From IMG/VR virus record IMGVR_UViG_3300031867_000037, positions 1-64,000 of that record: a stretch of DNA of 64,000 bases. One strand, 5' to 3'. Positions 15,300 through 19,133 of the stretch are shown in pieces (the first letter of the stretch is position 1; each line of letters opens with the position of its first letter). The notes beneath the pieces were generated by a model that worked only from the letters and a program-made list of their open reading frames with translations, was not told where the DNA came from and searched no databases. The position numbers and the translations under genes are program-made. Origin of the DNA: a virus. Taxonomy: Duplodnaviria; Caudoviricetes.

Positions 15300-15857
15300 A
15301 TGTTAGCTAAGATTTTAGCGGACTGGAAAGGAGCCGTTGAAGTAAACGGACAGCGTTATGAATCAGTACAAGACGCTGTGAGCGTTTTTAAGACACTTTC
15401 TTCTGACAGTCATATAAGACTACTCACAAAGCAAGAAAATGTCTCTAAAGCGAAAATAGAGCGTTCTAACGATATTACAGAGTATCTTATAGAGGTAAAG
15501 AAGTACATGACACAGAAAGCAAGTCCGGGATTTGATTTCATGGCTAAGTGGAACAACGATAATCCGATGCCAATGAGAATCATGCAAGGCACAGTTGAGA
15601 AAGAAACTCGTGGCATGATTTACATGAAACTTCACGGACTTGCTAAGCCCACAATAACTTGTAGATGCTGTGGCAAAGAACTTACTAATCCGGTATCAAG
15701 ATATTACGGAATCGGCCCAATCTGTTTAGGAAAGATGGGAATATTACGTGATATTGATGATATAGAAAACATTAAAGAAGATTTGGTTAACATCGTTTGG
15801 GAAGGATGGATAATCAAATCAGCAATCACAAAGAAGGAGGAAGTAACTAATGATTAA
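15300..15857 (+). CDS. DUF6011-like zinc-binding protein
   Basis: CRCCGKELTNPVSRYYGIGPIC. Confidence 0.7.
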   Translation: MLAKILADWKGAVEVNGQRYESVQDAVSVFKTLSSDSHIRLLTKQENVSKAKIERSNDITEYLIEVKKYMTQKASPGFDFMAKWNNDNPMPMRIMQGTVEKETRGMIYMKLHGLAKPTITCRCCGKELTNPVSRYYGIGPICLGKMGILRDIDDIENIKEDLVNIVWEGWIIKSAITKKEEVTND

Positions 15858-16110
15858 AGTTGAACTTGGACACATTGAAACATCTGGACCGAAATTCGTT
15901 ATTGCGGCAGAACTTGCAACTATGTTTAATTCTATGAATAAGCAGGGCATGTTTACTAAGGAAGAGGTGCATAAACTCGTGGATGACGGATTTATGACTG
16001 ACGAGGAACTTGACGCAAGAGTAGAGGCGACTTGTAAGGAATCCGGTCAGAGTGTAGAAGAAGGTATGGCAGAGGCCGCTCTTCTGGCAATGCTTGGTAG
16101 TCTGCTGTAA
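15850..16110 (+). CDS. hypothetical protein
   Basis: RBS AAGGAGG; coupled. Confidence 0.65.
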   Translation: MIKVELGHIETSGPKFVIAAELATMFNSMNKQGMFTKEEVHKLVDDGFMTDEELDARVEATCKESGQSVEEGMAEAALLAMLGSLL

Positions 16111-16130
16111 TGTAACTTTAGCAGAATAAC

Positions 16131-16225
16131 GATTCGGTGGCGGAATAGGTAGACGCTTACCAGGTAAGATGCTTTGGATGCCTGATAGCGAGCATCATGT
16201 AAGGTGTAAATCCTTACCCGAATCG
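16131..16225 (+). ncRNA. tRNA-like RNA with 3-nt anticodon-position loop and long extra arm
   Basis: Acceptor GATTCGG/CCGAATC; Leu/Ser-type D arm; T arm GTAAGG-TGTAAAT-CCTTAC; TTAC-CAG-GTAA mini hairpin. Confidence 0.65.
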
Positions 16226-16234
16226 TTATGTTAA

Positions 16235-16318
16235 GCTGGTATGGCGGAATTGGCAGACGCAACGGACTTAAAATCCGTTGATAGTAATATCGTGAGGGTT
16301 CGATTCCCTCTACCAGCA
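16235..16318 (+). tRNA. tRNA-Leu(TAA)
   Basis: Full cloverleaf; anticodon stem ACGGA/TCCGT, loop CTTAAAA; long variable arm; no encoded CCA. Confidence 0.92.
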
Positions 16319-16341
16319 TCGGACATCTTATTATTAAGGTG

Positions 16342-16462
16342 GTCCTCCTGAACGATACCCCACTACGGCGAAAGGCTGTGGGCTACAATTAGTAGCTGTC
16401 CGTCGGTGAATGCATCGAGATTCGGGCAAAGGAACTTCAAATGTTCCGGTGGGGTTTAGGAC
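16342..16462 (+). ncRNA. multi-stem structured RNA containing a T-loop hairpin
   Basis: ACCCCAC/GTGGGGT closing helix with four internal hairpins incl. GGAAC-TTCAAAT-GTTCC. Confidence 0.6.
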
Positions 16463-16500
16463 AAATAGTTGTCTATTAATATTATGTAAAGGAGAAACAT

Positions 16501-16953
16501 ATGAAAGCTGGCGACATTGTGAAAGTAACAAGTTGGGGAAAATCTTACAGCACAAACTATTTTTGGTTCGATAAGTTCAAGGGTGAACTTGACTATCGTT
16601 GGATGATTTGTTATGCGTATGATGACCAAAGAAATTATACAAAGTATTGGTCTGAGACCCATCCAGATAATCCTAAGGATACGAAAAGATATGTTGTGCT
16701 CTTTGTTGGCGATGGTAAGGCACTTATTACCGAGCGAGTTGGATATGAACTTAATAAACATGCAGTAAGTAATTCCGTATATCTTGTTGATGTAGACGGG
16801 CTAGAGGTCATTTGTAGTAAAAATTCCGCCGAGGACACTTCTGAGGAAAATGCTGATGCTGAATCAGATAATAAGGACAAATCAAGTAAAGATGAAGTAG
16901 AGGATTTAGAGAAGCTGGCTGTAGAAGCATTTATTAATTGGCTATTTAGTTAA
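16501..16953 (+). CDS. hypothetical protein with acidic tail, inside RNA array
   Basis: RBS AAAGGAGA; 150 aa ORF. Confidence 0.7.
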   Translation: MKAGDIVKVTSWGKSYSTNYFWFDKFKGELDYRWMICYAYDDQRNYTKYWSETHPDNPKDTKRYVVLFVGDGKALITERVGYELNKHAVSNSVYLVDVDGLEVICSKNSAEDTSEENADAESDNKDKSSKDEVEDLEKLAVEAFINWLFS

Positions 16954-16959
16954 ATACTT

Positions 16960-17197
16960 TAAGAACTGGTTCGTTAGTGAGCGATTAAAGTGCGGTCGAA
17001 GGCCAAGACTGCCGCCAGTTGTAGAAATGAAATACTAGCAGGGTAGTGAACTGTTCACAGGGAAAATGCGTGAAGCTGTGACCGTTATTGGAGCAGAGAT
17101 AATCACAAGGAGTAAGGACAAATGGAACCGAACTTTGGATGGACTACCCATTTGGGAGTGTAAGTGTAGACAAAGGGTACAACAGTGATGTGGTTGT
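16960..17197 (+). ncRNA. putative structured ncRNA
   Basis: No ORF; nested helices AACTGG/CCAGTT, GCGGTC/GACTGC, GGGTAGT/ACTACCC, TCACAG/CTGTGA. Confidence 0.5.
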
Positions 17198-17268
17198 TAG
17201 AGTATGTCAACGGCAACAGTCTAGTCTCCATCAACTAGAAAACGAAGGTTCGAATCCTTCTGCTCCTG
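17198..17268 (+). tRNA. degenerate tRNA-Trp-like with 8-nt anticodon loop
   Basis: T arm GAAGG-TTCGAAT-CCTTC; anticodon stem CTAGT/ACTAG, loop CTCCATCA; short D arm; 5-bp acceptor. Confidence 0.55.
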
Positions 17269-17304
17269 CTCGGTGGTAAGGCTTGCAACGCTGAATCATC
17301 GGAA

Positions 17305-17366
17305 GACCGCAGAACAAAAGTGACAACAAAAACTGTGGGAGTGCGGTTGACTGTCACTAGACCGCA
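17305..17366 (+). ncRNA. two-hairpin element with complementary loops
   Basis: CCGCAG/CTGTGG and TGCGGT/ACCGCA stems; loops AGTGACA and TGTCACT are complementary. Confidence 0.5.
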
Positions 17367-17369
17367 TTT

Positions 17370-17486
17370 CAGAACGTAGCTCAAACGGTAGAGCCGCCCC
17401 TCATGCTGGTTCGAATCCAGCCTGCGAAGCAGTAATTCAAATGGCAGAATCGGGGCTGGTTGCAGGTTCGAATCCTGCCGTTCCGA
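17370..17486 (+). ncRNA. double-elbow tRNA-like RNA (two D arms, two T arms, no anticodon)
   Basis: All helices can be paired by hand; see findings. Confidence 0.75.
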
Positions 17487-17487
17487 T

Positions 17488-17714
17488 GCCGTGGTATCTT
17501 CCCACGTTAAACCAGAGAGGTTTGCAGTAATCCTGAGAGCCCGCCTATTGGCATTAAGCCAAGTAAGGCCTAACCCTTCATGAAGGGGATGTACGGCGGG
17601 AACAAACGAATCCTCCTCCTGTTGGTAACCAGAAAACCAGTCGAGTGAGAAACCTGAAAACGCAGCGGTCTGGCAATGCGGAAGTAGGACGCACCTTTGG
17701 GGATACGGTGCAAC
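17488..17714 (+). ncRNA. putative ~230-nt structured ncRNA
   Basis: Helices CGTGG/CCACG, AAACC/GGTTT, CCCGCC/GGCGGG, TTGGC/GCCAA, GCACC/GGTGC; GC-rich and non-coding. Confidence 0.55.
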
Positions 17715-17716
17715 TC

Positions 17717-17805
17717 GGGAATGTAGCTCAACGGCAGAGCACAGGCAAATTTCGTCCCCGTCCTTCACAGCCTGTTTTTTGTGGGTTCGAATCCCACCAT
17801 TCCGA
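17717..17805 (+). ncRNA. tRNA-like RNA with 23-nt anticodon loop
   Basis: D arm GCTC/GAGC; stem CAGGC/GCCTG; T arm GTGGG-TTCGAAT-CCCAC. Confidence 0.7.
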
Positions 17806-17883
17806 TTGAATCTGTTATTTGCAGATTCAGTTGTTTTAATTCTTTTCTGGCGAGTACCGGTATTGCCGTGCCGGTACTCATTA

Positions 17884-17957
17884 CGGAACGTAGTTTAAAT
17901 GGTAAAACAGTTACATTGCAGATGGGTTGATTGCAGGTTCAAATCCTGTCGTTCCGA
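17884..17957 (+). tRNA. degenerate tRNA (Cys-GCA-like loop, poorly paired anticodon stem)
   Basis: Acceptor CGGAACG/CGTTCCG; T arm with TTCAAAT loop; loop TTGCAGA. Confidence 0.55.
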
Positions 17958-17961
17958 TTAC

Positions 17962-18034
17962 TGCCCCATCGCCAAGAGGTTAAGGCATAGCACTTTGACT
18001 GCTATATTCCCTGGTTCGAATCCAGGTGGGGTAG
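17962..18034 (+). tRNA. tRNA-Gln(TTG)
   Basis: Cloverleaf; stem TAGCA/TGCTA, loop CTTTGAC; T arm CCTGG-TTCGAAT-CCAGG. Confidence 0.92.
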
Positions 18035-18060
18035 CTAAATAAAAATGAGGAGGACAATGA

Positions 18061-18231
18061 ATGGATATTAAATTTTGTAAAGATTCTGGCTGTCATTATT
18101 TTGACGGGTTTGGTTGTGACCGAAGTCCTGTCGTAAAAGAAAATGAAGAAAGGTGTTCCTGTGATGAACGAGAAGCCATACAAGTCAGCGTGGGAGATAT
18201 TCACAGACCCGAAAGAGTTAAAGATAGCTGA
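18061..18231 (+). CDS. possible small Cys-rich protein (56 aa)
   Basis: GAGGAGG RBS 7 nt upstream; overlaps next ORF in another frame. Confidence 0.4.
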   Translation: MDIKFCKDSGCHYFDGFGCDRSPVVKENEERCSCDEREAIQVSVGDIHRPERVKDS

Positions 18232-18562
18232 GAAGATACAGCAAAGAAGATACCAGATGCTTATTCATTCCTGTATTTATTATAGGCTGAATGATAATTA
18301 TATATCTGATACTCAGTGGAATGAATGGGCGCACGAACTGGAACAACTACAAAGTCAGTACCCAACAATATCTGAAAAGGTGACGTTGTACGAATATTTT
18401 AAAGATTGGGATGGAAGTTCCGGAGCATTTCTACCGCTTGATTTACCGTGGGTAGTAAAGAAAGCACAAGATTTATTGGCATATCGAGAAAATAGCAAGT
18501 CTATAGTATTACCACAAAAAGTAGTTCCGAAGAAAAAAAGTTCGAAAAAAAGATTATTCTAG
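18143..18562 (+). CDS. stand-alone NAD-dependent DNA ligase N-terminal (Ia)-like domain
   Basis: IHSCIYYRLNDNYISDTQWNEWAHELEQLQSQYP resembles LigA YY..D.P.ISD.EYD.L..EL..LE..YP; no adenylation KxDG. Confidence 0.65.
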   Translation: MKKGVPVMNEKPYKSAWEIFTDPKELKIAEKIQQRRYQMLIHSCIYYRLNDNYISDTQWNEWAHELEQLQSQYPTISEKVTLYEYFKDWDGSSGAFLPLDLPWVVKKAQDLLAYRENSKSIVLPQKVVPKKKSSKKRLF

Positions 18563-18564
18563 TA

Positions 18565-18593
18565 TTGCTTTTCAGTGTAACGTGTAGTATAAT
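18565..18593 (+). promoter_or_regulatory. promoter TTGCTT-17-TATAAT
   Basis: Spacer ends GTGTAG like the other promoters of this class. Confidence 0.7.
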
Positions 18594-18635
18594 TATAGAG
18601 TAGTAAGTTGCTTGCTCAGTAAGAAAGGAGAGACT

Positions 18636-19133
18636 ATGAGCGGAGTTGATTGGGATTATTATAACAAAGAGGAGTTTAGTAGAATCAGTGACAAGTATTT
18701 GCCGGCAGAGGGCGAGGGTGAAACATTAGCAACACAGATTTGTACTGCGGTGAGCAAATTAGTCTATAAGTGGTACAATGATGGTGATGTATTCGACAAT
18801 TCCTATTATCTTAACGGCTGGGCAAATAATTTATCCAGTTATGCGAATTGGTTATTTACATACGTTCCCGAGGTTCAAAATATTTTGCGTGAAATTAGAA
18901 ACTGTAAGACAGAAGAGGATTATGAGGAATTACTCAAGAAACTCACCGATTATTGTTTCAGAGAAGAATTTATGGACAACATGAGCCGCATAACAAAGCG
19001 TGGTAGTATTTATAATTGTGACGGTCCGTTTCATTTTGAAGCGGACTCAGACGAGGACGAGGACGATGATTGGGAAGAAGAATTTTATGGTTGGGATATT
19101 GACGATGATGAAGATGATTGGGAGGACGAATAA
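18636..19133 (+). CDS. hypothetical protein with very acidic C-terminus
   Basis: RBS AGAAAGGAG; D/E/W-rich tail. Confidence 0.75.
   Translation: MSGVDWDYYNKEEFSRISDKYLPAEGEGETLATQICTAVSKLVYKWYNDGDVFDNSYYLNGWANNLSSYANWLFTYVPEVQNILREIRNCKTEEDYEELLKKLTDYCFREEFMDNMSRITKRGSIYNCDGPFHFEADSDEDEDDDWEEEFYGWDIDDDEDDWEDE

Follow-up and report, generated by a model that had tools for sequence, protein, structure and literature searches.

What is a transfer RNA (tRNA) body for when the place of its anticodon loop is taken by a second tRNA body? The question is raised by a 117-nt element at 17370-17486 (+) of the first 64,000 nt of the IMG/VR virus record IMGVR_UViG_3300031867_000037. This stretch, here called the window, makes up most of a 74-kb record that is about 92% complete. 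A first-pass annotation of the DNA had proposed that the element is one chain with two D/T elbows and one shared helix, without an anticodon and unable to decode. This description holds, and the same seven-helix design occurs in at least seven phage lineages. There is little doubt about the structure (two elbows, one free acceptor end and no anticodon) or about the membership of the element in a recurrent class of phage RNAs.

Direct reading confirmed the proposed placement of every base (Table 1). In order, the helices are acceptor, D, shared stem, T, closed acceptor, D and T. The two strands of the shared stem, GCCCC and GGGGC, are separated by 51 nt, of which only 4+1 bases (TCAT and C) are unpaired and outside the inner module, so that a 7-nt anticodon loop is impossible. 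The stem cannot be extended at either end and is exactly 5 bp long in six of the eight parsed members of the class, including this one; its two junctions are alike, with a C before and a U after the five pairs on each strand. The connectors are likewise constant across the class and of tRNA-like length, two nucleotides for positions 8-9 and one for position 26, in agreement with the original observation that positions 8, 9 and 26 are in register in both bodies. The bases of the tRNA elbow and core are found twice over: U8, A14, A15 with U48, G18G19, A21, G53, T54-T55-C56, A58 and C61. Judged from the bases, the last U of the inner linker TCAT could make the 15-48 pair with the inner A15. The molecule might be pictured as a pseudo-two-fold dimer of tRNA top halves, in which D stem, shared stem and D stem would be stacked upon each other. 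CCA is encoded neither in the element nor in the phage's canonical tRNAs. The window has a single pair of exact GGTTCGAATCC T loops at a spacing of 36-56 nt, against 0/100 shuffles with such a pair; together with the R2 score given below, this excludes a chance origin.

Table 1. Segments of the element, and RNAs of the same design in other phages (L numbers denote other loci; R2 is the covariance model described below)
Feature	Position	Strand	Basis or remark
Outer acceptor 5' strand CAGAACG	17370-17376	+	6/7 pairs with 17479-85, A2.C71 mismatch; acceptor in Rfam tRNA and R2 alignments
U8-A9	17377-78	+	Direct reading
Outer D arm GCTC-AAACGGTA-GAGC, with A14, A15, G18, G19, A21	17379-94	+	Direct reading, Rfam tRNA
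C26	17395	+	Direct reading
Shared "anticodon" helix, 5' strand GCCCC	17396-400	+	5/5 pairs with 17452-56
Inner variable linker TCAT	17401-04	+	Direct reading
Inner T arm GCTGG-TTCGAAT-CCAGC	17405-21	+	Direct reading; T1 helix across the class
Inner acceptor stem closed as hairpin CTGC-GAA-GCAG	17422-32	+	Direct reading
Inner U8'-A9' (TA)	17433-34	+	Direct reading
Inner D arm ATTC-AAATGGCA-GAAT	17435-50	+	Direct reading
C26' (C)	17451	+	Direct reading
Shared helix, 3' strand GGGGC	17452-56	+	Pairs with 17396-400
Outer variable region TGGTT	17457-61	+	Direct reading, Rfam tRNA
Outer T arm GCAGG-TTCGAAT-CCTGC	17462-78	+	Direct reading, Rfam tRNA
Outer acceptor 3' strand CGTTCCG	17479-85	+	Direct reading
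Discriminator A	17486	+	Direct reading
Double-elbow RNA	L123:11348-11467		IMG/VR scan
Double-elbow RNA	L186:5337-5459; homologue L189:11734-11856		IMG/VR scan
Double-elbow RNA	L184:7691-7813; L190 identical		IMG/VR scan
Double-elbow RNA	L183:8874-8994		IMG/VR scan
Double-elbow RNA	L055:8912-9039		IMG/VR scan
Double-elbow RNA, jumbo phage	L126:8818-8946		IMG/VR scan
Double-elbow RNA, jumbo phage	L009:6441-6571, plus two further L009 paralogues		IMG/VR scan

Is this design peculiar to one phage? IMG/VR contigs were scanned in three ways: for two close T loops, for a D arm too near a T loop, and for a T loop followed by TA plus a D loop and then another T loop. Most matches were things other than a double elbow; the full seven-helix design was found in the subset listed in Table 1. 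One copy each is present in G000, G002 and G003, and three in G001. The jumbo-phage members encode ACCA at the outer 3' end. Genomic contexts differ, with a portal gene at L123, terminase genes at L184, RecT and exonuclease genes at L186, and a UvsX-like recombinase, a small ligase-like open reading frame (ORF) and a clamp loader around the present copy; no RtcB gene was found in this phage. At four loci (L123, L184, L186 and L189) there is no canonical tRNA gene within 10-15 kb of the double elbow, which is therefore not debris of a tRNA cluster. When 50,697 phage records were searched by BLAST with the region 16100-18100, only the tRNA-Leu and a tRNA-like unit at 16124-16225 were matched, and three other double-elbow RNAs found no match, so that no cultured carrier was identified in this set.

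A covariance model built from this sequence alone (R1) also matched ordinary tRNAs by deleting the insert. For this reason, the model was rebuilt as R2 from five double-elbow RNAs of other phages only (alignment A6), which avoids circularity, and hits were filtered by length; the MAFFT alignments A1, A2 and A5 were structurally inconsistent and were not used for models. R2 matches the element over all 120 model positions with 110.8 bits (E 3e-25), more than the 92.9-103.2 bits of the sequences on which it was trained, while no ordinary tRNA, across 1.77 Mb of phage loci rich in tRNAs, rises above 52.8 bits. Standard pairs fill 95.9% of the pair cells of A6, compared to 64.8% after shuffling (0/500) and 31-44% when partners were slid, and 30 of the 34 pairs have changed on both sides. 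The first-pass annotation had suggested covariation in the shared helix and in the CTGC/GCAG hairpin as a check, and compensatory changes were found in both: the shared helix is 100% paired in A6 and covaries at four of its five pairs, as does the closed acceptor hairpin at all four of the pairs modelled. In a larger set of 10 RNAs from at least seven lineages, helix strands fit their own partners far better than the partner strands of other sequences (0/5000 permutations for six helices and 4/5000 for the outer D stem). Paired cells in this set are 50/50 for the shared helix, which has two to five pair types per position, 50/50 for T1, 40/40 for the outer D stem and 39/40 for the closed acceptor, which is 4-8 bp long in other members. 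The bases of the inner body are kept as well (G18'G19' and Y48' in 10/10, U8' and A14' in 9/10). From these alignments, the design is kept by selection through compensatory change in unrelated phages, and this covariation applies to the class and not to the individual locus.

Several observations weigh against the reading of the element as a functional double-elbow mimic. No orthologue of the element is present in 18 syntenic relatives, collected through the UvsX-like recombinase (65-91% identity), and a degenerate pattern of its own type had no match in metagenome contigs; this copy may therefore be young, with a selection history of its own that cannot be read. The scans demanded consensus T loops, which introduces ascertainment bias, and the model to which the alignments were fitted had its origin in this very sequence. 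No protein family is common to the flanks of the double-elbow loci, and neither an SPFH gene in the carrier phages nor a Ro60 gene in those searched was found. The outer acceptor contains an A.C mismatch, and neither the acceptor nor the outer T arm is predicted in the context of a 570-nt precursor. Folding with RNAfold, another check suggested at the outset, gave a divided answer: the proposed fold (-37.5 kcal/mol) is within 0.6 kcal/mol of the minimum free energy (-38.1 kcal/mol), but it is not singled out, the 117 nt alone being unremarkable (z -1.15).

The element lies in changeable surroundings. The relatives have in common with this phage a tRNA-Leu, a 60-nt block (16960-17020), a 118-nt block (17149-17266) that is 87-93% identical, a tRNA-Gln and a downstream ORF. 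The 660 nt at 17270-17930, missing in these relatives, L165 and L166 among them, hold the double elbow, a 230-nt non-coding stretch, a tRNA body with a 23-nt loop and a so-called tRNA-Cys. The last of these, called tRNA-Cys(GCA) by ARAGORN at 17884-17957 (+), has only about three of five anticodon-stem pairs and is a paralogue of the outer body of the double elbow (acceptor CGGAACG/CGTTCCG). Its counterpart, called tRNA-Tyr, is at L172:3887-3977, and probably neither can decode. The T arm and acceptor 3' strand of that L172 unit are identical to 17461-17487 of the element (27/27); no other relative has a tRNA-like gene sharing this acceptor and T arm, and the anticodon domain of the L172 gene is a different 40-nt sequence. 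As far as sequence comparison can tell, in this lineage the tRNA body is constant and the anticodon position variable, and the island is a hypervariable one that carries anticodon-altered tRNA mimics.

Could the element, then, be a neutral product of recombination, with pieces of tRNA genes illegitimately joined not long ago in a hypervariable island, transcribed or not but having no function of its own? The want of an orthologue, the missing 660-nt segment and the kinship of the outer body with 17884-17957 and the L172 unit are what such a join would leave behind. However, all seven helices, the connector lengths and the tertiary-contact bases are intact, the element outscores the training sequences on a model made from other phages, and chance would not recreate an architecture that is selected elsewhere. 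A functionless join is thus highly improbable.

A different role would be that of punctuation, in which the tRNA-shaped units of the 1.9-kb array serve mainly as cutting signals for RNase P and RNase Z that free the neighboring RNAs, leaving the anticodon domain to drift or be replaced. The arrangement is suggestive: non-coding stretches flank the element, the array is co-directional and has a terminator-like hairpin at its end (17803-17833), there are neighbors to release on either side, of about 240 nt (16960-17197) and 230 nt (17487-17716), and it is the anticodon domains that vary in this lineage while acceptor and T arms are kept. On the other hand, drift would neither build nor keep a second full tRNA body with all of its tertiary-contact bases, the design is maintained by compensatory change in unrelated phages and also occurs without tRNA genes nearby, and no match to an Rfam family, be it GOLLD, ROOL or another, is found for either flanking RNA. 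Punctuation is therefore improbable, although less so than a neutral join.

How do existing RNA models see the element? The Rfam tRNA model (RF00005) matches 17370-17486 with 42.5 bits (gathering score 29) over its full length, model positions 1-71, and takes 50 nt of it as an insertion into the anticodon loop; the match thus covers the outer body only. ARAGORN calls no tRNA here, and an anticodon stem closing a 7-nt loop with an anticodon, the mark of a tRNA, is absent. Since the model reads the module as an insertion in the anticodon loop, the element could in principle be an intron-bearing tRNA from which the inner module is removed to yield a decoding tRNA. Excision, however, would leave five bases (TCAT and C) with neither U33 nor the purine-37 pattern, and no bulge-helix-bulge motif can be drawn at the junctions. 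To our knowledge, group I introns are the only tRNA introns in bacteria and phages; the 51-nt insert is far below the size of these, and it has no Rfam intron match. Covariation and the conserved tertiary bases, moreover, mark the module as selected for a tRNA-like fold. An intron can be dismissed with near certainty. Among other candidates, a transfer-messenger RNA (tmRNA), including the two-piece form, is rejected because ARAGORN finds none and no Rfam tmRNA model matches the element. T-box binding needs pairing of an anticodon with the specifier, and a T-box decoy is rejected because this pairing is absent here. An antisense ORF at 17235-17768 is not considered a real gene, as it belongs to no Pfam family and opposes all neighboring genes.

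The inner module points in another direction. It was compared at first pass with the bacterial YrlA Y RNAs, and aptly so: it has the YrlA order of variable region, T arm, closed acceptor stem and D arm (V-T-AS-D) inside a helix (PMC4201824). The element is nevertheless not a YrlA RNA in the strict sense. The YrlA model (RF02553, gathering score 69 bits) has no match at E<=10 in 15500-19000, the Ro60-binding terminal stem is absent, as the termini form a tRNA acceptor stem instead, and there is no TROVE (Ro60, PF05731) gene in this virus record or in five other carrier records. Related modules are found in bacterial chromosomes (L191-L310, for example L191, L200, L216 and L230), where T arm, closed acceptor and D arm are repeated in tandem, preceded by a conserved GTATGCTG motif. 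Most of these chromosomes belong to Bacteroidota, and some to Bacillota, Chlorobiota and others. An SPFH/Band 7 gene follows the tandem modules on the same strand, about 350 nt downstream, in 106 of 120 loci; the YrlA matches of the modules are sub-threshold only, and a Ro60 gene was found in one of five genomes tested.

The double elbow may by this comparison be a tether, in which the inner module binds an effector and the outer tRNA body is a second handle, bridging two different proteins as a Y RNA bridges Ro60 and PNPase. Sub-threshold YrlA scores of 31-35 bits for the inner modules of the double-elbow loci L009 and L056, and of 33-43 bits for the related bacterial RNAs, are consistent with this, as is the module order itself, and the proximity to SPFH/Band 7 genes shows that modules of this type have found uses with proteins other than Ro60. 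The element itself lacks both a YrlA match and the terminal stem; no TROVE gene is present in this phage or in five other carriers, nor is an SPFH gene, and the loci have no neighbor protein in common. Tethering is therefore rather unlikely, but it is a better candidate than punctuation.

What does the RNA do? The best explanation overall is that it is one small RNA made of two tRNA bodies joined tail to tail, a non-decoding mimic that binds tRNA-recognizing proteins; confidence and doubt about this are evenly balanced. Like a tRNA, the element would be cut from a + strand RNA array, by RNase P at C1 and by 3' trimming after A73, followed by the addition of CCA. Processing of this kind is expected because RNase P, RNase Z and the CCA-adding enzyme require just such an acceptor/T-arm stack and elbow as the outer body provides, and because the jumbo-phage members carry an encoded ACCA. 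The RNA would remain one chain, since the 4-bp inner acceptor hairpin is too short for RNase P; among YrlA RNAs, only one with a 7-bp acceptor stem is an RNase P substrate (PMC4201824). It would be unable to read codons and, having no anticodon, could act only by being bound, occupying proteins that recognize the elbow, the body or the acceptor end of tRNA.

Which proteins would these be? Our preferred targets, proposed tentatively, are host defense nucleases or toxins directed at tRNA, for which the RNA would be an uncleavable, bivalent competitive binder. This is preferred because the members of the island differ precisely in the anticodon domain, and because host nucleases cut tRNAs in the anticodon, variable or anticodon-arm regions and phage tRNAs counter them, as several reports document (PMC10264068, PMC11555353, PMC10802454, PMC13096335, PMC13056530, PMC12445682). 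A stronger form of the proposal, and a somewhat more doubtful one, is that of a dedicated counter-defense RNA, clamping dimeric or multimeric tRNA-cutting nucleases or toxins by its two elbows and one acceptor end. The tRNA body would then be a natural display scaffold with exchangeable payloads at the anticodon site; here the payload is a second tRNA body, and in neighboring genes other inserts are found.

The same island contains further tRNA-like units. A second family is represented by 16129-16226 (+), by units in L164, L166, L169 and L179 and by two copies in L172. Its members have a Leu-type D arm (GGCGGAATAGGTAGACGC), a T arm (AAGGTGYAAATCCTT) and, in place of the anticodon and variable arms, a hypervariable middle of 40-60 nt; their acceptor stems vary among copies with complementarity kept. 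Leuconostoc phages match the member at 16129-16226 with 75% identity. At 17717-17805 (+) there is a tRNA body (Rfam tRNA, 45.6 bits) with a perfect CAGGC/GCCTG stem and a pyrimidine-rich loop of 23 nt, and directly after it a 13-bp terminator-like hairpin with a T run at 17803-17833; this unit is absent in the 18 relatives. The non-coding blocks 17149-17270 (+) and 16960-17020 (+), 87-94% conserved in relatives, belong to no Rfam family; the former ends in a T arm, has an oversized 5' part and matches tRNA weakly (19.6 bits). The 230-nt non-coding stretch between two tRNA-like units, 17487-17716 (+), is lacking in the relatives and matches nothing in Rfam, including GOLLD and ROOL. A GOLLD or ROOL RNA covering 16964-17716 was rejected as well, as neither the window at the gathering score nor 15500-19000 at E<=10 gave a match. 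An ORF inside the RNA island, 16501-16953 (+), encodes 150 amino acids with no PHROG and no Pfam family above threshold; it has no IMG/VR relatives, and its segment is missing in the syntenic relatives. Of the cultured phages, Streptococcus Dp-1/MS1 and Clostridium phages come nearest in UvsX (about 42%), and a host among the Bacillota is therefore likely.

Other phages carry tRNA-like RNAs of different builds. Widespread are forms of 58-65 nt without an anticodon arm, in which a 7-bp acceptor, a D arm and a T arm are combined with a linker of 9-13 nt (for example L124:1218-1280, L128:1385-1443, L131:1105-1164, L140:7165-7223 and L040:3741-3799), often directly after a normal tRNA. In many tRNA bodies of phage contigs the anticodon loop is replaced by inserts of 20-60 nt that are not tRNA, with 30-60 nt at L009:6284-6418 (-), L126:8976-9096 (+), L031:1050-1155, L098:5802-5919, L038:2785-2911 and L103:10091-10218; those of the jumbo phages have a conserved bulge of 1-2 nt in the acceptor 3' strand and an encoded ACCA end. 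Finally, L020:4616-4732 (-) and L081:3324-3450 (-) are nested RNAs with two T loops and two linkers that cannot pair, the linkers of L020 being identical (GCAAGAGAT). Each has the look of a double elbow that lacks the shared helix or of a tandem of two armless tRNA-likes, and these RNAs may give a clue to the origin of the double-elbow architecture.

Has such an RNA been seen before? The first-pass annotation knew of none, and no description of the double-elbow design was found in full-text literature searches or in Rfam release 15; a 2026 preprint on three bacterial tRNA-mimic families describes other folds. The element is thus a tRNA mimic built from a YrlA-type module, of a design that appears in no paper found, and it links phage tRNA-like genes to that module outside the Ro60 context. 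Mimicry of tRNA is a recurring route for hijacking the many proteins that read tRNA shape, and clusters of tRNA genes in phages are by now recognized as playing a part in the struggle with immune systems that cut tRNA. A natural RNA of one chain that carries two complete tRNA elbows on a single helix would be a new structural solution, and in some phages it is the only tRNA-shaped gene nearby. At 117 nt, it is a convenient object for asking which host factors read the elbow only, what bivalency contributes, and whether phages employ non-decoding RNAs against defenses.

Engineered tRNA scaffolds resemble the element in bearing a payload at the anticodon-stem end of an otherwise intact tRNA body. 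In those described by Ponchon and Dardel in 2007, foreign RNA reportedly replaces the anticodon loop, and the chimera is processed and stabilized like a tRNA. The element differs in being natural and in having a tRNA body as its payload; nearby genes, in this phage and in others, bear different payloads at that position. The inner body, for its part, resembles the circularly permuted tRNA genes that Soma and colleagues are said to have described in 2007 in the red alga Cyanidioschyzon merolae, in that T arm and acceptor 3' strand, which make up the 3' half, come upstream of the 5' half with its acceptor 5' strand and D arm. The algal precursors are reportedly circularized and re-cut to give normal decoding tRNAs, whereas the permuted body of the element has no anticodon loop and is nested in another tRNA.

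Closest in build is YrlA (RF02553), whose module order was described by Chen et al. 2014 (PMC4201824). Both RNAs have a permuted tRNA-like module closed by a helix, with tRNA-type bases in the D and T loops, and neither decodes. In YrlA, the closing helix runs on into the Ro60-binding stem formed by the termini of the RNA, and the gene adjoins rsr; in the element, which has neither this stem nor a Ro60 gene in its virus record, the closing helix serves as the anticodon stem of another, complete tRNA body. In their setting, the nearest parallel is with the canonical tRNAs by which phages counter tRNA-targeting defenses (PMC10264068, PMC11555353, PMC10802454), which are likewise tRNA-shaped and come from accessory, fast-changing clusters. 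By analogy, it is plausible that selective pressure from tRNA-cutting host nucleases is common to both. The canonical phage tRNAs decode and replace or evade the cleaved host tRNAs; the double elbow, without an anticodon, could act only by binding.
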